From a virus (lineage: Duplodnaviria; Heunggongvirae; Uroviricota; Caudoviricetes): a stretch of DNA of 39,992 bases. This document shows, piece after piece, positions 7,545 through 39,616 of this stretch; positions within the stretch are counted from its first letter, which is position 1; each line of letters opens with the position of its first letter. The stretch covers positions 1-39,992 of IMG/VR virus record IMGVR_UViG_2875722834_000002; one strand, given 5' to 3'. The notes beneath the pieces are model-generated. The model searched no databases and was not told where the DNA came from. It worked only from the letters and a program-made list of their open reading frames with translations. The position numbers and the translations under genes are program-made.

Positions 7545-8486
7545 ATGAGCACTAAATTAACCGGCTATGTATGGGATGGTTGCGCTGCATCAGGCATGAA
7601 ATTATCCAGCGTGGCAATTATGGCCCGCCTGGCTGATTTCAGTAATGACGAAGGTGTGTGCTGGCCATCAATTGAAACTATTGCCCGTCAGATTGGCGCG
7701 GGGATGAGTACCGTCAGGACGGCTATCGCACGGCTGGAAGCAGAAGGCTGGTTAACGCGTAAGGCGCGTCGCCAGGGTAACCGCAATGCGTCGAATGTTT
7801 ATCAGCTTAACGTTGCGAAGCTTCAGGCAGCGGCATTTTCTCAACTGTCAGATTCTGACCCGTCAAAATCTGACGCATCAAAATCTGACCCGTCAAAATT
7901 TGATGCGTCGAAATCTGGCAAAAAAGCGGGTTTTCACCCGTCAGAATCTGGCGGGGATCCGTCAGTAAAATCAAAACATGATCCGTCAGATAAAAAACCT
8001 TCTCGTCCGGACGCTTCGCAACCGGACACGCAGACGGATGAACAGGATTTTTTAACTCGCCATCCTGATGCGGTTGTATTCAGCCCTAAAAAGCGCCAGT
8101 GGGGAACGCAGGATGATTTGACCTGCGCACAGTGGCTCTGGAAAAAAATCATCGCCCTGTACGAGCAGGCTGCCGAATGTGACGGCGAGGTGGTTCGTCC
8201 CAAAGAACCGAACTGGACAGCCTGGGCAAACGAAATTCGCCTGATGTGTGTGCAGGATGGTCGTACTCACAAACAAATCTGCGAGATGTACAGCCGCGTC
8301 AGCCGCGATCCGTTCTGGTGCCGTAACGTGCTCAGCCCGTCGAAGTTGCGGGAAAAATGGGATGAGCTTTCCCTGCGCTTATCACCGTCCGTCAGCACGT
8401 ACACCGAAAAACGCGAAGACCCGTACTTCAAATCCAGTTACGACAACGTGGACTACAGCCAGATCCCGGCAGGATTCAGGGGGTGA
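7545..8486 (+). CDS. Replication initiation / replisome-organiser protein (lambda O-like, N-terminal winged HTH)
   Basis: N-terminal HTH-like region, internal Ser/Asp/Lys-rich linker encoded by iteron repeats, located after the cro/YdaT-like genes. Confidence 0.7.
   Translation: MSTKLTGYVWDGCAASGMKLSSVAIMARLADFSNDEGVCWPSIETIARQIGAGMSTVRTAIARLEAEGWLTRKARRQGNRNASNVYQLNVAKLQAAAFSQLSDSDPSKSDASKSDPSKFDASKSGKKAGFHPSESGGDPSVKSKHDPSDKKPSRPDASQPDTQTDEQDFLTRHPDAVVFSPKKRQWGTQDDLTCAQWLWKKIIALYEQAAECDGEVVRPKEPNWTAWANEIRLMCVQDGRTHKQICEMYSRVSRDPFWCRNVLSPSKLREKWDELSLRLSPSVSTYTEKREDPYFKSSYDNVDYSQIPAGFRG
7847..7998 (+). repeat. Iteron array inside the O-like gene (putative phage replication origin)
   Basis: About 8 imperfect copies of a 15-bp unit cGTCAaAATCTGAC(c/g) (e.g. 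7861-7875, 7876-7890, 7891-7905), ending in ccgtcagataaaaaac. Confidence 0.6.
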
Positions 8487-26329: not shown

Positions 26330-26478
26330 CGGCTGAATACCTCACTGATCGCTTCTTTGACTGCGCCAGTTACTGGCGCATTAATCCCTTCGAATTGCTG
26401 AATATGCCGATCAGTGAAATTCCCTTGCTGGTCAGTCAGGCAAACAGGATAGAGCAGGAGAAACGCACACATGGCTGA
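26060..26478 (+). CDS. Tail assembly chaperone, -1 frameshift product (GT-like)
   Basis: Slippery site at 26311-26317 in X_XXY_YYZ register; the -1 frame stays open to 26478 and runs into the tape-measure start. Confidence 0.6.
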
Positions 26479-28426
26479 ATTTGAGCTTAAGGCGTTGATC
26501 ACCGGTGTCGACAGGCTTTCTCCCGCGCTGTCGAAAATGCAAAAGAAAATCCGGGGATTTAAACGCCAGGCGGAAGAAGCGTCACAGGGTGGGCTGGCGC
26601 TTGGTGGCGGACTGGCAGCGGGTCTGACGCTTTCCCTGAAATCTTATGCCGATCAGGAAAACGCCGCCACCGGGCTGAAAGTCGCCATGATGGATGCGAA
26701 CGGCGAGGTTGGAAAGAGCTTTCAGGACATCAATAAACTGGCTATTGGCCTGGGTAACCAGCTACCCGGTACAACGGCTGATTTCCAGAACATGATGCAG
26801 ATGCTGGTGCGTCAGGGGATCCCGGCAGAAAACATTCTTGGTGGTGTGGGTAAAGCGACAGCTTATCTTGCGGTACAACTGAAAAAAACACCGGAAGCGG
26901 CTGCTGAGTTTGCTGCAAAGATGCAGGATGCTACCGGAACGGCGTCAGAAGACATGATGGGGCTGTTCGACACTATCCAGAAGGCGTTTTATCTGGGCGT
27001 TGACGATACCAACATGTTGTCCTTCTTCACTAAAACCAGTTCTGTTCTGAAGATGGTGAACAAGGACGGTCTTCAGGCTGCACAGAGCCTTGCCCCCATC
27101 AGCGTCATGATGGATCAGATGGGGATGAACGGGGAGTCGGCAGGTAATGCCCTGCGAAAAGTTATCCAGTCCGGATTAAGCGTTAAGAAAATCAGGGACG
27201 TCAATAAAGTCATGGCCCGCCAGAGACTCGGGGTACAGCTCGATTTTACTGACGGCAAAGGAAGTTTTGGCGGTCTTGATAACATGTTCAGGCAACTGGC
27301 AAAGCTGCGAAAACTGACCGACGTTAAGCGAACAGGTGTACTTAAGGCAATATTTGGTGATGATGCCGAAACCCTTCAGGTGGTCAATGCACTAATCGAT
27401 AAAGGAAAGGATGGCTACGATCAGATCCAGCAGAAGATGAATAAACAGGCCAGCCTGAATAAACGTGTTCAGGCACAGCTTGGTACGCTGTCCAACCTGT
27501 GGGAGGCAATGACGGGGACCGCAACTAACGGCCTTGCGGCTATTGGCGGCGCATTTTCTGGTGACGCCAAAAATATCACGCAATGGCTGGGGGAGTTGGG
27601 GGAAAAATTCACGAAGTTTGCGGATGAAAATCCCCGGGTTATTCGCGGCGTCGTCGGGCTTGCTGCCGGTCTTGCGATTCTGAAACTGGGATTGATGGGC
27701 GTGGGCAGTGCCATCAGTATCGTCAGCAGGATCATGTCGATGACGCCGATTGGCATGATTGCGACGGCGATTGCCTTGGCTGCGGGATTAATTATCACTA
27801 ACTGGGATGTTGTTGGACCTTATTTCAAGAAGCTCTGGGAAACCATTGGTCCTTATTTTGAGGCTGGCTGGGAACTTCTGAAGAAGGTTTTTGCCTGGTC
27901 GCCGCTGGGGATGGTAATCAATAACTGGGGACCGGTTGTTAAGTGGTTTCAGGATATGTGGGACAAGCTGAAGCCAATTATTGAGTGGTTTACCGACAGT
28001 TCCGGTGACACGGTCGATGCCATTAACTCGGCGCAGTGGGGCGCGGGTGCTTATGATGCTTATGGGACGGGAATACCGGCGCGGGGATACACACCTTATC
28101 CGGCGCAGTCAAACAACGCCTCCGGTGACACGGTCGATGCCATTAACTCGGCGCAGTGGGGCGCGGGTGCTTATGATGCTTATGGGACGGGAATACCGGC
28201 GCGGGGATACACACCTTATCCGGCGGTAGATCCGGCTCAGTCAAACAACGCCTCCGATGCTACAGGCCCGAATCCCTTCATGATTAACAAAGCTTCTGCG
28301 CCAAAAGTTGACGGTGAGATCAAGGTCTCTTTTGTGAATTCGCCTCCGGGTATGCGGGTTATGGAAACGCGATCCAGCGGTTTTGATATAAATCACGATG
28401 TTGGCTATACGCATATTGGCAGATGA
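26471..28426 (+). CDS. Tail tape measure protein
   Basis: 651 aa with a helical N-terminal half, a hydrophobic segment and position after the chaperone pair. Confidence 0.85.
   Translation: MAEFELKALITGVDRLSPALSKMQKKIRGFKRQAEEASQGGLALGGGLAAGLTLSLKSYADQENAATGLKVAMMDANGEVGKSFQDINKLAIGLGNQLPGTTADFQNMMQMLVRQGIPAENILGGVGKATAYLAVQLKKTPEAAAEFAAKMQDATGTASEDMMGLFDTIQKAFYLGVDDTNMLSFFTKTSSVLKMVNKDGLQAAQSLAPISVMMDQMGMNGESAGNALRKVIQSGLSVKKIRDVNKVMARQRLGVQLDFTDGKGSFGGLDNMFRQLAKLRKLTDVKRTGVLKAIFGDDAETLQVVNALIDKGKDGYDQIQQKMNKQASLNKRVQAQLGTLSNLWEAMTGTATNGLAAIGGAFSGDAKNITQWLGELGEKFTKFADENPRVIRGVVGLAAGLAILKLGLMGVGSAISIVSRIMSMTPIGMIATAIALAAGLIITNWDVVGPYFKKLWETIGPYFEAGWELLKKVFAWSPLGMVINNWGPVVKWFQDMWDKLKPIIEWFTDSSGDTVDAINSAQWGAGAYDAYGTGIPARGYTPYPAQSNNASGDTVDAINSAQWGAGAYDAYGTGIPARGYTPYPAVDPAQSNNASDATGPNPFMINKASAPKVDGEIKVSFVNSPPGMRVMETRSSGFDINHDVGYTHIGR
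28001..28256 (+). repeat. Perfect 120-bp tandem duplication inside the tape-measure gene
   Basis: 28001-28105 is identical to 28121-28225; copy 2 carries a 12-bp insertion (gtagatccggct) before the shared cagtcaaacaacgcctccg. Confidence 0.9.
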
Positions 28427-28478
28427 CGGAACCAGATATAATTTGTCTTTAAGTTTGTTATCAACTGAAGGGAAATCT

Positions 28479-28856
28479 ATGGGTCTGTTACATGCCATTA
28501 TAGGTAATGCCGGTGAAATTAATGCATCAGATGCACAACAGGAATTAGGGGCTGTTTTAGGTGAGGGAGAAAATGTCGAACTTGCCTATAAACTCATTCG
28601 TGACCAAATTATTCTGACTAACAGAAGGTTAATTTTTATTGATAAGCAGGGTGTCACAGGGAAAAAAGTAGAGTATCGTTCGATTCCTTATAAATCTGTG
28701 ACAAACTTTTCTATTGAAACCGCCGGGCATCTTGATCTTGATGCTGAAATGAAGATATGGATTTCTGGTATTGCAGAACCGATAAAAAAACAGTTCAGTA
28801 AAGGAGCAAACATTTATAAATTGCAGGCTCATCTGGCTCAAAAAATAGCAGGGTAA
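28479..28856 (+). CDS. Small cytoplasmic protein, possibly a bacterial PH-like fold; AT-rich inserted gene in the tail module
   Basis: ATG at 28479 with GAAGGG RBS; 125 aa; beta-rich pattern ...RRLIFIDKQGVTGKKVEYRSIPYKSVTNFSIETAG...; own terminator. Confidence 0.55.
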   Translation: MGLLHAIIGNAGEINASDAQQELGAVLGEGENVELAYKLIRDQIILTNRRLIFIDKQGVTGKKVEYRSIPYKSVTNFSIETAGHLDLDAEMKIWISGIAEPIKKQFSKGANIYKLQAHLAQKIAG

Positions 28857-28882
28857 ACCTTACATTAATTTATGTCTTTCAT

Positions 28883-28904
28883 GCCCACTTCGGTGGGCTT
28901 TTTT
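28883..28904 (+). terminator. Intrinsic terminator after the inserted small gene
   Basis: Hairpin gcccac-ttcg-gtgggc followed by TTTTTT. Confidence 0.75.
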
Positions 28905-28919
28905 ATATCCGGAGTTTAT

Positions 28920-30374
28920 ATGACGTGGAAAGACAGGCTTCAGGACGCGTCATTTCGCGGTGTGCCGTTTAAGGTTGAAGAAGAAAGTGCGGGAACAGGT
29001 CGCCGTGTGGAAACACACGAATATCCGAACCGCGACAAACCCTATACCGAAGATCTGGGAAAAGTCACTTTCCGCCCGTCCATCACGGCTTATGTGGTGG
29101 GCGATGACTGCTTTGACCAGCGCGATCGCCTGATTGACGCGCTGAATAAACCCGGTCCCGGCACGCTTGTCCACCCGACTTACGGTGAGCTGAAAGTCTG
29201 TGTTGACGGAGAGGTTCGGGTCAGCACATCGAAAAGTGAAGGGCGTATTGTCCGCTTTGACCTGAAGTTTGTCGAAGCGGGAGAACTCTCTTACCCCACA
29301 TCAGGTGCGGCGACGGCGCAGACGCTGATGTCATCCTGTTCTGCACTGGATGACTGCATCAGTGACAGCTTCAGCGGTTTCAGTATCGATGGTGTGGCGG
29401 ATTTCGTGCAGAACGACGTTATCGGTAATGCCAGCATAATGCTGGGGTATGTTTCTGATGCGATGAAAGTGGTGGATTCTGCCGTATCGGATGCCGCCAG
29501 GCTGTTGCAGGGGGATATCTCGGTACTTCTGCCGCCGCCATCGTCAGGCAAAAATTTCGTTGAGCAGGTGCAGAAAATGTGGCGTACCGGGAAACGCCTT
29601 TATGGTAACGCCAGCGACCTGGTCACCATGATCAAAACGCTTTCCGGTGTCAGCCTCGGCAGCGATCTGCAACCGCGCGGCGTCTGGAAAACGGACAGTA
29701 AAACCACCGCCACGGCGACGCAGCAGCGTAACGTGGTTGCCAGCACCCTTCGTGCGACCGCAATCAGCGAAGCGGCGTATGCCGTCACCCGATTGCCTGC
29801 GCCAACAACTTCCGCGGTGATGCAGAATGCCGCAGTGGGGCAGTCAACAACTTCCGCGGTGATGCAGAATGCCGCAGTGGGGCAGTCAACAACTTCCGCG
29901 GTGATGCAGAATGCCGCAGTGGGGCAGTCAACAACTTCCGCGGTGATGCAGAATGCCGCAGTGGGGCAGTCAACAACTTCCGCGCAGAGCACCGGCTGGC
30001 CTTCCGTCACGCATCCGGCACTGAACAATGCACCGGCGGTGAAAAACACGGTTGACCTGCCAACGTGGGAAGAACTGACTGACATTCGCGACACACTGAA
30101 TACGGCAATTGATAAGGAGTTGTCCCGTACAACCAGTGATGCGCTGTTTCTGGCGCTGCGCCGGGTGAAAGCAGATCTGAATGCGGATATCAACACGCGC
30201 CTTGAACAGTCTGCTCGGATCATTCAGCGCACGCCGGATGAGGTCTTACCCGCGCTGGTGCTGGCGGCGACCTGGTTTGATAACGCGGCGCGTGACGCGG
30301 ACATTATCCGGCGTAATGCCATTACGCATCCCGGCTTTGTGCCGGTGATCCCTCTGAAGGTGCCAGTGCAATGA
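28920..30374 (+). CDS. DNA circulation protein (Mu N-like)
   Basis: ATG at 28920 with GGAG RBS; position after the tape-measure gene; contains an internal 14-aa x4 repeat. Confidence 0.7.
   Translation: MTWKDRLQDASFRGVPFKVEEESAGTGRRVETHEYPNRDKPYTEDLGKVTFRPSITAYVVGDDCFDQRDRLIDALNKPGPGTLVHPTYGELKVCVDGEVRVSTSKSEGRIVRFDLKFVEAGELSYPTSGAATAQTLMSSCSALDDCISDSFSGFSIDGVADFVQNDVIGNASIMLGYVSDAMKVVDSAVSDAARLLQGDISVLLPPPSSGKNFVEQVQKMWRTGKRLYGNASDLVTMIKTLSGVSLGSDLQPRGVWKTDSKTTATATQQRNVVASTLRATAISEAAYAVTRLPAPTTSAVMQNAAVGQSTTSAVMQNAAVGQSTTSAVMQNAAVGQSTTSAVMQNAAVGQSTTSAQSTGWPSVTHPALNNAPAVKNTVDLPTWEELTDIRDTLNTAIDKELSRTTSDALFLALRRVKADLNADINTRLEQSARIIQRTPDEVLPALVLAATWFDNAARDADIIRRNAITHPGFVPVIPLKVPVQ
29803..29984 (+). 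repeat. Perfect 42-bp tandem repeat, 4.3 copies, in frame inside the DNA circulation gene
   Basis: Unit caacaacttccgcggtgatgcagaatgccgcagtggggcagt at 29803, 29845, 29887 and 29929, plus a 14-bp partial copy; encodes TTSAVMQNAAVGQS x4. Confidence 0.95.
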
Positions 30375-31450
30375 ACGATAACGTCACGCTACGGGTAAAT
30401 GGCCGGGAGTGGAATGGCTGGACATCGGTGCGCATCGGTGCCGGTATTGAACGGCTGGCGCGGGATTTCAGCGTGGAGATCACCCGCCAGTGGCCGGGAG
30501 ATGAGGGTATCACCACGCTTCAGCCGCGCATTAAAAATGGTTCAAAAGTGGAAGTGCTGATTGGTGATGAGCTGGTGATCACCGGCTGGGTGGAGGCGAC
30601 CCCCGTTCGTTACGATGCCCGTTCGGTCAGCACCGGTATTGCCGGACGTAGTCTGACGGCTGACCTGATTGACTGTGCAGCCGAACCGACACAGTTTAAC
30701 GGACGATCGCTGGTACAGATTGCGCAGGCGCTTGCTGCGCCTTTCGGCATTGAGGTGGTGAACAACGGTGCGCCGTCGGGTGTTATTCCTGATGTCCAGC
30801 CTGATCACGGTGAAACGGTGATTGAGGTAATCAACAAAATACTCGGTCAGCAGCAGGCACTGGCTTACGACGACCCGCACGGCAGGCTGGTGATTGGCGG
30901 TATTGGCTCAACGCGGGCACATACTGCGCTGGTACTCGGGGAAAACATCCTTTCCTGCGATACGGAGAAGAGTATCCGGGAGCGGTTTTCTGTTTACCAG
31001 GTGGCGGGGCAGCGTGCCGGAAACGACGATGATTTCGGTGAGGCCACCACCACCGCGCTGCGGGCCCGCACAGAGGACGCATTTATTGCCCGTTACCGTC
31101 CGATGTATATCAGGCAGACAGGGCAGGCTACGGGGGCAGGCTGTATTGCCCGTGCGGACTTTGAAGCCCGACAACGGGCGGCGCGGACGGATGAAACCAC
31201 CTATGTGGTGCAGGGCTGGCGACAGGGTAACGGTACGCTGTGGCAGCCCAACCAGCGGGTGATTGTCTTTGATCCGGTCTGTGGTTTCGACAATACCGAA
31301 CTGCTTGTTTCGGAAGTCACGTTTACTCAGGACCAGAACGGCACCCTGACGGAAATCCGTGTCGGCCCACCTGATGCTTATCTGCCTGAACCCGAAGCCC
31401 CCGGCGCGCGGAAAAAGAAAAAAGCCAGAGTACAGGAGGACCCGTTCTGA
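30371..31450 (+). CDS. Baseplate hub protein (Mu P / gpD-like)
   Basis: 359 aa in the conserved Mu-type baseplate position. Confidence 0.7.
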   Translation: MNDNVTLRVNGREWNGWTSVRIGAGIERLARDFSVEITRQWPGDEGITTLQPRIKNGSKVEVLIGDELVITGWVEATPVRYDARSVSTGIAGRSLTADLIDCAAEPTQFNGRSLVQIAQALAAPFGIEVVNNGAPSGVIPDVQPDHGETVIEVINKILGQQQALAYDDPHGRLVIGGIGSTRAHTALVLGENILSCDTEKSIRERFSVYQVAGQRAGNDDDFGEATTTALRARTEDAFIARYRPMYIRQTGQATGAGCIARADFEARQRAARTDETTYVVQGWRQGNGTLWQPNQRVIVFDPVCGFDNTELLVSEVTFTQDQNGTLTEIRVGPPDAYLPEPEAPGARKKKKARVQEDPF

Positions 31451-31998
31451 TGAGGACGATTGAAGCCATGCAGCGACAACTCCTCGGCCTGATTGGGCGG
31501 GCCGTGGTGAAAAGCATCAGTGCCGCCACGAAATGTCAGACCGTGGATGTGTCCCTGATTGCCGGTGAACCCAAAGCCGGGGTTGAACATCTTGAACCCT
31601 ACGGTTTTACCGCAAGGGCAAACAGCGGTGCGGAAGCGGTGGTGTTGTTTCCGGATGGCGACCGTTCTCATGCGGTGGTTGTTACGGTGTCGGACCGTCG
31701 CTACCGCCTGAAAGGGCTGCAAACGGGGGAGGTGGCTGTCTATGACGATCAGGGGCAGTCCGTGACGCTGACCCGGGAGGGGATCGTGGTGGACGGTGCA
31801 GGTAAAACGATCACGTTTCGCAATGCGCCCAGAGCACGTTTTGAAATGGACCTGGAAGTGACCGGACAGGTGAAAGACCTGTGCGACTCCGGCGGCACCA
31901 CCATGTCAGCGATGCGGCTTGCCTATAACGGGCATCGTCACAGAGAGAACGGTCAGGGAAGTAACACCGACAAACCTGATAAAGCGATGGAGGCATGA
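31450..31998 (+). CDS. Baseplate assembly protein V-like (Mu gp45-like spike)
   Basis: 182 aa following the hub gene. Confidence 0.65.
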   Translation: MRTIEAMQRQLLGLIGRAVVKSISAATKCQTVDVSLIAGEPKAGVEHLEPYGFTARANSGAEAVVLFPDGDRSHAVVVTVSDRRYRLKGLQTGEVAVYDDQGQSVTLTREGIVVDGAGKTITFRNAPRARFEMDLEVTGQVKDLCDSGGTTMSAMRLAYNGHRHRENGQGSNTDKPDKAMEA

Positions 31999-34046: not shown

Positions 34047-34967
34047 ATGCATCGCATAGACACGAAAACCGCGCAGAAGGATAAGTTCGGCGCGGGTAAG
34101 AACGGTTTTACCCGTGGTAACCCCCAGACCGGCACGCCTGCCACCGATCTGGATGATGACTACTTTGACATGTTGCAGGAAGAACTTTGTAGCGTTGTTG
34201 AGGCATCCGGTGCCAGTCTGGAGAAGGCGCGGCACGACCAGCTGCTTACCGCGCTTCGTGCGCTGCTGTTAAGCCGCAAGAATCCGTTTGGCGATATCAA
34301 ATCGGATGGCACGGTGAAAACGGCTCTCGAAAACCTTGGAATTGAAAGGGTTGAGCAGCTCAATAACGAAACGAGAATTTATACCGGGGCCGATGGCTCT
34401 TATCTTTCCGCCAGAGGCGATGGGCAATTTGGTATTTTCGATCCATCACGGGGATTTATTCCTCTGGGTGTTCAGCAGGGTGGGACGGGAGCCAGAGATG
34501 CAGAAGGGGCAAGGGACAAACTTGGTTTGGGCCGGATTGAGCAGCGAGATGGTGAAACGGTAATTTATTGCGACGATAAAAAAACTGCATATTTTACAGC
34601 ACGCGAAGATAATCAGTGGGGGCTTTTTGACGGCACAAAATTCGTACCATTGGGGGTTCAGCAAGGCGGTACTGGTGCGAACGATGCAGCCACGGCCAGA
34701 AATAATCTGGGGATGGGCAATGCAGCAACAGGCCATGTAAGAACTGGCAAGGTCTCACGGTCCGGTGATAAATTATTTGATACCCCGTTCCCCAACGAAT
34801 GTACTGCCATTGCATTCGGCGTAATGATTGGCCAAGCCTGGATGTTCTCTCCCTATGTCACGTACCTTAATAAGACGGGTTTTGGTTTTGATGGTCGGTG
34901 TTGGAGTGGCACTAGTGTTCTCCAACCATTCGCTGAAGATGTTTATTACATTGCCTGGGGAAAATAA
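34047..34967 (+). CDS. Side tail fibre protein
   Basis: Conserved N-terminal region then a variable C-terminus with internal repeats ([11 protein letters not shown]...LG twice). Confidence 0.8.
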
Positions 34968-34968
34968 G

Positions 34969-35385
34969 ATGACATATCAATACAGCGCTAAGAACAACGC
35001 ATTTTTTCGTACTGCTGAGCTGGCGAATTATGAGGATGCGGGTTGGGATCTATCTGACCTGGTTGACGTAACCACTGAGCAATTTACTGCGTTCACTCAG
35101 GATCGAACCGTTGATGGATTAGTGCGCATCGCAGGCAATGACGGCATGCCAACATGGGGTGAAATCCCCCCACGTACACCAGAAGAACTTGAAGCAGATG
35201 CGGTGTCCAAAAAAACATCCCTTATCGCATATGCAACACATATTATTGACCCACTTAAGGATGCTTTTGATGGTGACTATATTGATGATGCAGATAAGCC
35301 AAAACTCACGGCGTGGCAAAAATATCGCTATGCACTGACAAAGGTTGACCCAGTCAACCCTGTCTGGCCTGAGATGCCAATATAG
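34969..35385 (+). CDS. Tail fibre assembly chaperone (Tfa)
   Basis: ATG at 34969 two bases after the fibre stop; 138 aa. Confidence 0.75.
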   Translation: MTYQYSAKNNAFFRTAELANYEDAGWDLSDLVDVTTEQFTAFTQDRTVDGLVRIAGNDGMPTWGEIPPRTPEELEADAVSKKTSLIAYATHIIDPLKDAFDGDYIDDADKPKLTAWQKYRYALTKVDPVNPVWPEMPI

Positions 35386-35454
35386 GAACGTTTATGAAAA
35401 TGCAGAAATAGCGCGCAAATGGCATCGTTCCTGTTTTTGTCAGGAGGAGCAATC

Positions 35455-36012
35455 ATGCTTATTGGCTATGTTCGCGTATCAACAAATGACCAGAACACCG
35501 ATCTACAACGTAATGCGTTGAACTGTGCAGGATGTGAGCTGATTTTTGAAGATAAGATCAGCGGCACTAAGTCCGACCGACCGGGACTGAAAAAACTGCT
35601 CAGAACATTATCAGCAGGTGACACTCTGGTAGTCTGGAAACTGGACCGACTGGGGCGCAGTATGCGGCATCTTGTCGTGCTGGTGGAGGAGTTGCGCGAA
35701 CGTGGCGTTAATTTTCGCAGCCTGACGGATGCTATTGATACCAGCACACCAATGGGACGCTTTTTCTTTCATGTGATGGGTGCCCTGGCTGAAATGGAGC
35801 GAGAGCTTATTGTCGAACGTACTAGGGCGGGCTTTGCCGCAGCACGACAAGAAGGGAGGAATGGTGGGCGAAAGCCAAAGCTGACAGTAGAACAATGGGA
35901 GCAGGCTGGCAGGTTGATTGAATCGGGAATATATCAGCAGCAAGTCGCACTGATTTATGATCTGGGTATTTCAACGGTGTATAAAAAATTCCCTGTAGCA
36001 AGTAAACCATAA
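35455..36012 (+). CDS. Serine-recombinase DNA invertase (Pin/Gin/Hin/Cin family)
   Basis: ATG at 35455 with AGGAGG RBS; N-terminus MLIGYVRVSTNDQNTDLQ with the catalytic Ser; C-terminal HTH; 185 aa. Confidence 0.85.
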   Translation: MLIGYVRVSTNDQNTDLQRNALNCAGCELIFEDKISGTKSDRPGLKKLLRTLSAGDTLVVWKLDRLGRSMRHLVVLVEELRERGVNFRSLTDAIDTSTPMGRFFFHVMGALAEMERELIVERTRAGFAAARQEGRNGGRKPKLTVEQWEQAGRLIESGIYQQQVALIYDLGISTVYKKFPVASKP

Positions 36013-37392: not shown

Positions 37393-38490
37393 TCAAGAGG
37401 TCTTATTTCTGCTCCTTTGGAGCTCTTCAAAACGATTATGTAAAGATTTCGGATACAGTTCGGTATATACCTGCCATAGCACGTTTAATGAACGATGCCC
37501 TGTAACCTGGGCGACTTCCTCAATACTAAAACCAGCCTCAAATAAGCGACTTGCCCCTTCTCTACGCAAATCATGGTATCGCAGATCCTTAATACCTAAT
37601 TTGCTTCTTACTCTCTGAAATCCCGCAGTAACAGAAGTGCTGTTATATGGAAAAATGAATTCCGATTTTTGGGGCTGTCGTTGGACGATATCCCAGGCTT
37701 CCCCAAGCAAGGCTACTTTCATGTGGTTGCCTTCCTTTTTGCGTGGATCTTTCCTGTCTCTTACGAGTATAGATTTTTGTTCCTGGTCGAGATCTTCCCA
37801 TCGTAACCGGCATACTTCTCCGATTCGCATACAGGACCATACAGAAAATTTGAGGATATCAACGAACGGAATTTTTGAGCATTTATGAGTAGATCGTTGT
37901 TGAAGGCCTGCAATGAGCATGTCCAGTTCATCAGATGCTGGTCTACGATTACGACGGTTTGATTTACCAATCAAACCAAGTTTAAGTAGATATGGGCGAG
38001 CGCTTATCGCCGGGTTTGATGTGTAATTAATTCCGTATACAGGTTTGGCCGCATCCAGAACACTGCCAAGATAACTAACATCGTGGCTGACTGTTGCAGG
38101 ACCTGCACCAGCGTTGTTTCTTAGCCTGCAATGTTCAATTACGTCATTTTCTGTCAGTTCAGATAGTTTGATCGCGGAGATGTCACTATCCATAAGCAGT
38201 TCCAGCACATATCTTTTAGTACGGCCTGCTTTACCTCCGGCATTTGGGTCATTTAAATATTTGTGTAGTAAGTCACGGACTGTAAGTCCGTCAACTGCAT
38301 TTGATGATGGAATGCCATATAGATCTAATTCCATCACTTTCTGTGTGCCCCATGTTTTGGCATGAGCATGTTTAGGGAATGTTTTGCTTTCCCTGTAAGT
38401 GATAACACCTTTTTCTTTGATAATCACATTACAGCGATAGCGTGGTGTGCCATCGGATTTTAGTCGTTTCTCTATGTTATAGTACGCCAT
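37393..38490 (-). CDS. int: Tyrosine integrase (dusA-associated type)
   Basis: 365 aa; C-terminal catalytic region with HDLRR, GHRS and a Tyr in ...WQVYTELY; divergent from dusA. Confidence 0.85.
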   Translation of the reverse strand: MAYYNIEKRLKSDGTPRYRCNVIIKEKGVITYRESKTFPKHAHAKTWGTQKVMELDLYGIPSSNAVDGLTVRDLLHKYLNDPNAGGKAGRTKRYVLELLMDSDISAIKLSELTENDVIEHCRLRNNAGAGPATVSHDVSYLGSVLDAAKPVYGINYTSNPAISARPYLLKLGLIGKSNRRNRRPASDELDMLIAGLQQRSTHKCSKIPFVDILKFSVWSCMRIGEVCRLRWEDLDQEQKSILVRDRKDPRKKEGNHMKVALLGEAWDIVQRQPQKSEFIFPYNSTSVTAGFQRVRSKLGIKDLRYHDLRREGASRLFEAGFSIEEVAQVTGHRSLNVLWQVYTELYPKSLHNRFEELQRSRNKTS

Positions 38491-38578: not shown

Positions 38579-39616
38579 ATGCACGATAATCATGAAACAA
38601 AAAAAATTAATCAAACCAGCGTGATGCCTGAAAAAACTGGTGTTTACTGGAATTCTCGGTTTAGCATTGCTCCTATGCTCGACTGGACGGACAGACATTG
38701 CCGCTATTTCTTGCGTCTGCTTTCCCGCAATACGTTGCTGTATACCGAAATGGTGACCACAGGGGCGATTATTCACGGTAAAGGTGATTATCTGGCGTAC
38801 AGTGAAGAAGAACATCCGGTAGCGTTGCAACTGGGCGGTAGCGATCCGGCGGCGCTGGCGCAGTGTGCAAAGCTGGCAGAAGCGCGCGGATATGATGAGA
38901 TCAACCTGAATGTCGGCTGCCCGTCTGACCGGGTGCAGAACGGCATGTTTGGTGCGTGTCTGATGGGTAATGCGCAGCTGGTTGCCGACTGCGTGAAAGC
39001 GATGCGCGATGTGGTGTCGATTCCGGTGACGGTGAAAACGCGTATTGGCATCGACGACCAGGACAGCTATGAATTTCTCTGCGATTTCATCAATACCGTT
39101 TCCGGCAATGGCGAGTGTGAGATGTTCATCATCCACGCACGTAAAGCCTGGCTTTCGGGGTTAAGCCCGAAAGAAAACCGTGAAATCCCGCCGCTCGATT
39201 ATCCGCGTGTGTATCAACTGAAGCGTGACTTTCCGCATCTGACAATGTCGATTAACGGTGGTATCAAGTCGCTGGAAGAGGCCAAAGCACACCTGCAACA
39301 TATGGATGGCGTGATGGTCGGGCGCGAGGCGTATCAGAATCCGGGTATTCTGGCGGCGGTAGACCGGGAGATCTTTGGTTCCTCGGATACCGATGCCGAT
39401 CCGGTGGCGGTAGTGCGCGCCATGTATCCGTACATTGAGCGTGAACTCAGCCAGGGGACGTATCTCGGCCATATTACCCGGCATATGTTGGGCTTGTTCC
39501 AGGGTATTCCTGGCGCGCGGCAGTGGCGGCGTTATTTAAGTGAAAATGCCCATAAAGCGGGTGCAGACATTAATGTGCTGGAACACGCGCTCAAACTGGT
39601 GGCGGATAAGCGTTAA
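38579..39616 (+). CDS. dusA: tRNA-dihydrouridine synthase A; the true start may be the internal ATG at 38624, and the 5' end may be prophage-derived
   Basis: Full-length Dus family protein matching enterobacterial DusA over essentially its whole length. Confidence 0.9.

Follow-up and report, generated by a model that had tools for sequence, protein, structure and literature searches.

The gene for a predicted tail-tube initiator in a prophage of the SfV/SfII/SfIV type contains a perfect 42-bp tandem array, at positions 29803–29984 (plus strand) of the window, which here means the whole stretch of 39,992 nucleotides that was analysed. With a probability that we put at roughly 0.8, this array is a young in-frame coding minisatellite (VNTR), made by slippage and probably near-neutral. 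It is an ordinary coding VNTR in a disordered segment, of a familiar kind, which lengthens a floppy loop that looks dispensable, and it points to no new mechanism. Coding minisatellites and VNTR loci in bacterial and prophage genes serve MLVA typing, and the array shares with them identical head-to-tail units, a unit length that is a multiple of three, alleles that are otherwise identical but differ in copy number, and placement in a protein segment of low complexity. A literature search found no published description of a repeat at this locus.

Tandem Repeats Finder reports an array at 29803–29984 with a period of 42, 4.3 copies, 100% matches, no indels and a score of 364. In a direct scan, 140 bases match perfectly at period 42, which sets the bounds of the tract at exactly 29803–29984. 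Exact pattern search places the unit, CAACAACTTCCGCGGTGATGCAGAATGCCGCAGTGGGGCAGT, four times on the plus strand, with starts at 29803, 29845, 29887 and 29929 (29803–29844, 29845–29886, 29887–29928 and 29929–29970), followed by a 14-bp partial unit (29971–29984). No further site was found elsewhere in the window when up to three mismatches were allowed, and the number of matches expected from 100 dinucleotide-preserving shuffles is 0.00. The head-to-tail units, in 4.33 copies of 100% identity, are thus beyond chance. The 42 bp of the unit make 14 codons, the plus-frame ORF is uninterrupted across the array, and the translation reads P-(TTSAVMQNAAVGQS)x4-TTSA-QSTG, which corresponds to residues 296–355 of a 484-aa protein; the 14-residue unit has neither charged nor aromatic residues. 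The repeat finder, the scan and the translation all bear out the preliminary description, which had reported four identical 42-bp units and a 14-bp partial copy, in frame. A minus-strand ORF (29600–30223) also covers the repeat; it was rejected as a shadow ORF because the indels of the homologues fit the plus frame, and homologues were found only for the plus-frame protein.

The gene (28920–30374, plus strand, 484 aa) is annotated as 'DNA circularization protein', and Pfam, PHROG, PDB profile and Foldseek comparisons all assign its product to the Mu gp43/N type of tail-tube initiator. We place its start at the ATG at 28920, and not at 28872 as given by the ORF finder, because GGAG and a terminator-like hairpin with a T-run, which ends the upstream gene, stand before the ATG, because the RefSeq annotation of identical alleles begins at this codon, and because the N-termini of the homologues (M-[TAS]-W-K-D-R-L) agree with it. 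The Pfam family DNA_circ_N (PF07157) matches residues 23–109 of the 500-aa ORF over positions 2–88 of its 88-position profile, with 117.7 bits against a gathering cut-off of 21, and the match to PHROG 184 'baseplate hub' has an E value of 1e-142. A profile of the family searched against the PDB finds Mu protein N (9ki1; E 1.2e-15, profile positions 10–431), as well as gp25 of phage Milano and a protein of phage 7-7-1. BLASTP against Mu N gives E 7e-20 at 26% identity, and Foldseek of the AlphaFold model against 9ki1 gives E 1.9e-20, so that the homology to the solved Mu protein is full-length.

The position of the gene is also that of Mu gp43/N. It lies in a contractile-tail module, between the tape measure (PhageMin_Tail in Pfam, 26471–28426) and a hub of the Mu P/gp44 type (GpP-like domains in Pfam, 30371–31450), which is followed by gp45 (31450–31998, Pfam/ORF); gp46, gp47 and gp48 are also among the neighbours, a small PH-domain gene separates the tape measure from the tube initiator, and sheath and tube genes are found upstream in identical prophages. 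By homology, the 'DNA circulation' protein is predicted to be a baseplate tail-tube initiator. The preliminary description had spoken of a DNA circulation gene with a baseplate-proximal product: the baseplate part stands, and the name gives way to tail-tube initiator in view of the PDB profile, Foldseek and the Mu structure (PMC11915804).

The 2025 cryo-EM study of Mu identifies gp43 as the baseplate's hexameric tail-tube initiator, which consists of an N-terminal tube-like domain and of a helix-rich domain with a LysM module that lies against the baseplate wedges; gp43 is reported to stabilise the wedge–hub connection and to take part in contraction (PMC11915804). A hexameric ring that starts tube assembly, and the binding and circularisation of injected DNA, are described for Mu only (PMC11915804). 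Mu is a transposable phage, whereas the window phage belongs with the SfV-type phages (HK97-like head, P27-type terminase, HNH) and is not transposable, so a DNA-circularising role is not implied for the window protein. The two proteins share the N-terminal tube-like domain, the helix-rich domain and a C-terminal beta-alpha-alpha-beta end, which in the model of the window protein consists of a strand (433–437), two helices (445–453 and 456–466) and a second strand (479–483), with no match to Pfam LysM at E <= 0.001. At the place of the array, Mu N has a low-complexity stretch of about 60 aa, rich in S, T, A and G, which is not a tandem repeat. Only 419–446 of the 495 residues of Mu N are modelled in 9ki1, chain lengths from which we infer a fit with disorder in this stretch; the supplement of the Mu structure paper contains no list of the modelled gp43 residues (PMC11915804). 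The 'baseplate centerpiece' gp25 of Agrobacterium phage Milano (8fqc; Foldseek E 1e-17) and the protein of phage 7-7-1 (9rku; about E 3e-16, precisely 2.8e-16) have the same two-domain tube-initiator fold; both are 398 aa long and loopless, and the loop that holds the array is therefore outside the core fold.

According to the AlphaFold model and the alignment, this loop (residues 290–382, encoded by 29787–30065, plus strand) lies between predicted helices 261–289 and 383–403. When the enterobacterial homologues are compared, the conserved blocks ...AISEAAYAVTRLPAP and GWPSVTHPALNNAP bracket the array, which lies in an unconserved segment with many indels. An exhaustive profile search returned 6,088 representatives of the family, of which 119 were aligned. 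Among these 119, the median length of the segment from the helix end ...AYAVTRL to the motif PTWEEL is 2 aa; the segment is longest in the window protein (88 aa) and reaches at most 63 aa in any other. Column identity in the same alignment is 0.01–0.11 in the segment vs 0.4–0.7 in its flanks, and a comparison of the single-copy alleles shows that the loop is also a hot spot of amino-acid replacement.

The AlphaFold model made from the 119-sequence alignment has a mean pLDDT of 87.4 and a pTM of 0.73, and its only long weak stretch, at about residues 301–360, has a pLDDT of 40–55 and no secondary structure. It is important to note that a low pLDDT is partly expected at any lineage-specific insertion, where the alignment is uninformative. 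This model replaced one made from a shallow alignment of 50 relatives, which was discarded since its mean pLDDT was 48 and the loop could not be separated from the domains. The preliminary description had proposed that the repeat changes the length of a linker, and had suggested a structure prediction to see whether this linker is flexible: the repeat is indeed predicted to be a hypervariable coil of low pLDDT in an otherwise confident model, but we would call the segment an insertion-prone loop within the helix-rich domain rather than an inter-domain linker.

Of 5,426 complete E. coli genomes, 1,097 (about 20%) carry the tube-initiator gene, and about 99.5% of the roughly 1,090 carriers have 1.33 copies of the unit. 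In an evenly spaced sample of 60 of the 1,097 records, where the spans of the matches to a 601-bp query were compared, 58 of the 59 full matches span 475 bp instead of 601 bp, that is, 1.33 copies. A 70-bp query that covers the junction between two units matches in one piece in only five complete E. coli genomes. This query is partly confounded, in that two overlapping pieces are joined on single-copy alleles; only one-piece matches that span 70 bp were thus counted as expanded alleles, and the count was cross-checked with the evenly spaced sample. Exact counts give 2.33 copies in HH107, 3.33 in 730V1 and 4.33 in CFS3292, and the match spans give 2.33 copies in 1332KP and 873.10. Expanded alleles are rare, at about 0.5% of the carriers, and this rarity could also reflect mild counter-selection.

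Outside complete genomes, the exact 484-aa protein is encoded with 4.33 copies on the draft NCBI contig NMEQ01000039 (allele L005), and alleles with 2.33 or 3.33 copies are found on contigs from IMG/VR and from human-gut metagenomes. In the protein database, 484 aa correspond to four units, 470 aa to three (one sequence on 96 contigs) and 442 aa to one unit, the latter heading clusters with more than 11,000 members. The 4.33-copy array occurs in at least three other assemblies, and no allele with more than 4.33 copies was found in IMG/VR, in JGI/ENA metagenome contigs, in complete E. coli genomes or in the protein database. All 12 of the sequenced phage isolates that carry the gene have a single copy, and none of the other family proteins sampled from a set of 275 has a tandem repeat. 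The comparison across related prophages and strains that had been suggested together with the idea of a copy number variable in frame thus shows a polymorphism from 1.33 to 4.33, with 1.33, 2.33, 3.33 and 4.33 copies all present in independent assemblies.

The rest of the gene is free of SNPs among the window and alleles L001 (3.33 copies), L003 (2.33) and L005 (4.33), so that copy number differs between otherwise identical alleles, as in a coding minisatellite; among the single-copy alleles found, L004 comes closest, with 13 differences within the gene. That the expansion is recent, as was first proposed from the perfect identity of the units, agrees with this absence of SNPs among alleles of 2.33, 3.33 and 4.33 copies. 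Both three and four units occur in the background of the reference protein (P0004 and P0001), in that of a T262A variant (P0007 and P0002) and in one with a different N-terminus (P0011 and P0003). Since each of three backgrounds exists with three and with four units, the array probably changes recurrently. The simplest reading of these sequences would be that the number of units was altered more than once and outpaces point mutation; recombination could be another source of the pattern of three and four units across backgrounds.

Some observations on the flanks of the array are relevant to the history of these prophages. The hub gene downstream exists as two haplotypes, which differ at 15 sites (30706–31441) and are freely combined with different copy numbers; the window, L001 and L002 share one of them, L003 and L005 the other. 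The tube-initiator gene of CFS3292 has a different 5' end, with 16 SNPs before 29280, and the tape measure of this prophage is different. To judge from these sequences, the mosaic flanks of the repeat (28427–31450) indicate frequent recombination among these prophages.

The single-copy alleles suggest how the array may have arisen. Those of phages SfV, SfI, SfII, SfIV and SKA5 are 96.8–98.1% identical in nucleotides to the window over the gene, a range that also applies to the whole tail module of these Shigella and E. coli phages, and the alleles from E. coli genomes are mostly 95–99% identical. Single-copy alleles, in SfV-type phages and in E. coli, have the same loop sequence, TTSAVMQN[AS]AVGQ[AS]TT[PAS]AQSTG, that is, one unit and an imperfect partial copy, in contrast to the four perfect units and perfect partial copy of the window. 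They hold an imperfect direct repeat, in which CAACAACTTCCGCG (TTSA) is followed 42 bp on by CAACAACAGCTGCG or CAACAACACCCGCG (TTAA or TTPA); L004, for instance, reads CAACAACTTCCGCG-28 bp-CAACAACAGCTGCG. The first copy of this 14-bp motif in the window (29803–29816, plus strand, codons TTSA) is, on the evidence of alleles L004 and L010, a likely substrate for slippage together with the imperfect second copy. The second copies are imperfect, and no single-copy progenitor with two perfect 14-mers was seen among the matches listed. In L010, an IMG/VR contig, two full units are followed by the ancestral CAACAACACCCGCG, and this allele is best seen as an intermediate that retains the ancestral partial copy.

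Short tandem repeats in E. coli undergo replication slippage, and their changes are RecA-independent. In the mechanism that we propose, the two short motifs would mispair by strand slippage or undergo unequal exchange, which would give the first duplication of 42 bp. With two perfect units in place, replication slippage would gain and lose whole 42-bp units, and the terminal partial copy may have been converted to the sequence of the array by misaligned heteroduplex repair. With each unit, a loop of the helix-rich domain that contacts the baseplate wedges would gain 14 residues, which are uncharged, small or polar. The loop would grow from about 46 to 88 residues and leave the folded parts untouched, so that the protein would tolerate the change in length, which would probably be nearly neutral. 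Slippage is deduced from the way the array is built. Base pairing between the CCGCGG palindromes of adjacent units is possible in single-stranded DNA (z = -2.15); with so modest a z value, it could at best be suggested that this pairing aids slippage.

Among other explanations, selection on copy number deserves the most attention, even if we consider it unlikely. The array would then be a rapidly switching trait, which tunes how far the C-terminal LysM-like part reaches or how flexible it is, or alters a tail-tip protein that is ejected and so escapes exclusion by the host or by a prophage; a variable 120-bp repeat in the tape-measure gene could act jointly with it. The recurrent change of copy number in several backgrounds is what such a trait would produce, although any perfect 42-bp array should change fast without selection. 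The role reported for Mu gp43 in wedge–hub stability and contraction (PMC11915804) and the concentration of replacements in the loop of single-copy alleles are also in line with tuning, but about 99.5% of the carriers stay at one copy, and the loop is nearly absent in most members of the family (median 2 aa). The presence of a second variable in-frame repeat (one to three copies) in the tape-measure gene of the same lineage could be taken as support, but the two do not change together: one tape-measure unit goes with 4.33 copies in L005, and three go with 2.33 in L009. Near-neutral drift is favoured because expanded alleles are rare, the family is mostly loopless and the tape-measure repeat does not co-vary. 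A stronger version, in which the 42-bp and 120-bp arrays act together as rapidly mutating length switches in two tail-tip proteins, both of which leave the virion on infection in Mu-type phages, is to our mind quite improbable. If it were true, the pair would vary the geometry of the tail tip, or allow escape from exclusion or defence proteins that recognise ejected proteins.

It is still less probable that the array is an assembly artefact, the true number of units being lower, or one, and inflated by the assembler. The array, at 182 bp, is longer than many short reads, from which copy number is hard to fix, another perfect repeat lies 1.6 kb upstream, and the copy number given here for the window is that of its assembly. 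Assemblers usually collapse perfect repeats instead of expanding them, which is the opposite of what this explanation needs. The 4.33-copy array is found with identical flanks in the complete CFS3292 genome, in draft NMEQ01000039 and in protein entry P0002, and intermediates of 2.33 and 3.33 copies exist in many independent assemblies. It is this recurrence in independent assemblies, and the existence of intermediate alleles, that make an artefact unlikely. A role at the level of DNA or RNA, whether as iterons that bind protein, as a promoter within the gene that serves the baseplate genes, or as a switch for on/off phase variation, seems very unlikely. Perfect nucleotide identity and the CCGCGG palindrome of each unit, which can pair with its neighbour (z = -2.15), could be read in this way, but the weak hairpin is more simply an aid to slippage. 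A scan of the array for promoters and terminators found none: there are no promoter-like sites in 29500–30500, and the terminator-like matches lie outside the array. The unit is absent elsewhere in the window, and in about 1,090 genomes a single copy of it serves as ordinary coding sequence. The array shows neither the frame shift nor the change in promoter spacing of a phase-variable contingency locus, since a 42-bp unit preserves the frame and so does not switch the gene off. Equally remote is the idea that the 14 residues of each unit fold or bind as a module, such as a ligand-binding or oligomerising motif, more copies of which would give more function. The first unit was drawn as a helix in the shallow-alignment model, but that model was poor (mean pLDDT 48), and in the confident one the units are coil with a pLDDT of 40–55. 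No Pfam or PHROG domain falls on the repeat stretch, the unit is devoid of charged and aromatic residues, and homologues in other genera lack the motif.

Read as a slippage-made coding VNTR, the array identifies a site in the tube initiator that tolerates at least 42 extra residues and could suit the insertion of tags or the engineering of SfV- or Mu-type tails. As a fast-changing marker, it could separate very closely related prophages or strains, with the proviso that copy numbers from short-read assemblies are not to be trusted at this locus. It also offers a natural example of the growth of a disordered loop, from an imperfect direct repeat through duplication and stepwise expansion to homogenisation, of which an intermediate allele is still extant in public data.

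The tape-measure gene has its own perfect in-frame tandem repeat (28001–28225, 120 bp x 1.9, 40 aa), in the part that encodes the C-terminus. It is present as one unit in L004, L005 and L012, two in the window, L001, L003 and L008, and three in L009, and these numbers do not follow the copy number of the 42-bp array. A stretch of 12 bp (GTAGATCCGGCT, VDPA), present in the last copy and in the single-copy alleles, is missing from the first copy. Between the tape measure and the tube initiator, the bacterial PH-domain gene (28398–28856; Pfam bPH_1, 162 bits) is identical to a RefSeq gene of 378 bp, which implies a start near 28479; it looks like an inserted accessory gene (moron), and in CFS3292 a different gene takes its place. 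After the PH-domain gene, 28880–28919 contains the hairpin GCCCACttcgGTGGGC and a T-run, then GGAG before the ATG of the tube initiator.

Last, we note other features of the prophage, which is sited at dusA. An imperfect 15-bp x 4.3 repeat (TCTGACCCGTCAAAA, 7854–7917) lies within an ORF (7545–8486) with an N-terminal HTH_36 domain, an arrangement that may be said to resemble the origin iterons inside the replication-initiator gene of lambdoid phages. Within 34047–36012, the tail-fibre region is followed by a serine recombinase of the resolvase/invertase type (35419–36012), beside which L001 and L002 have tail-fibre assembly genes in both orientations; by analogy with the Mu G segment, this suggests that the tail-fibre segment may be invertible. 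At the right end, a tyrosine integrase (37393–38490, minus strand) directly adjoins dusA (38579–39616). The CFS3292 prophage occupies the same dusA site; in 730V1 the related prophage is found close to cadC, with IS5 and IS26 interrupting its right side.
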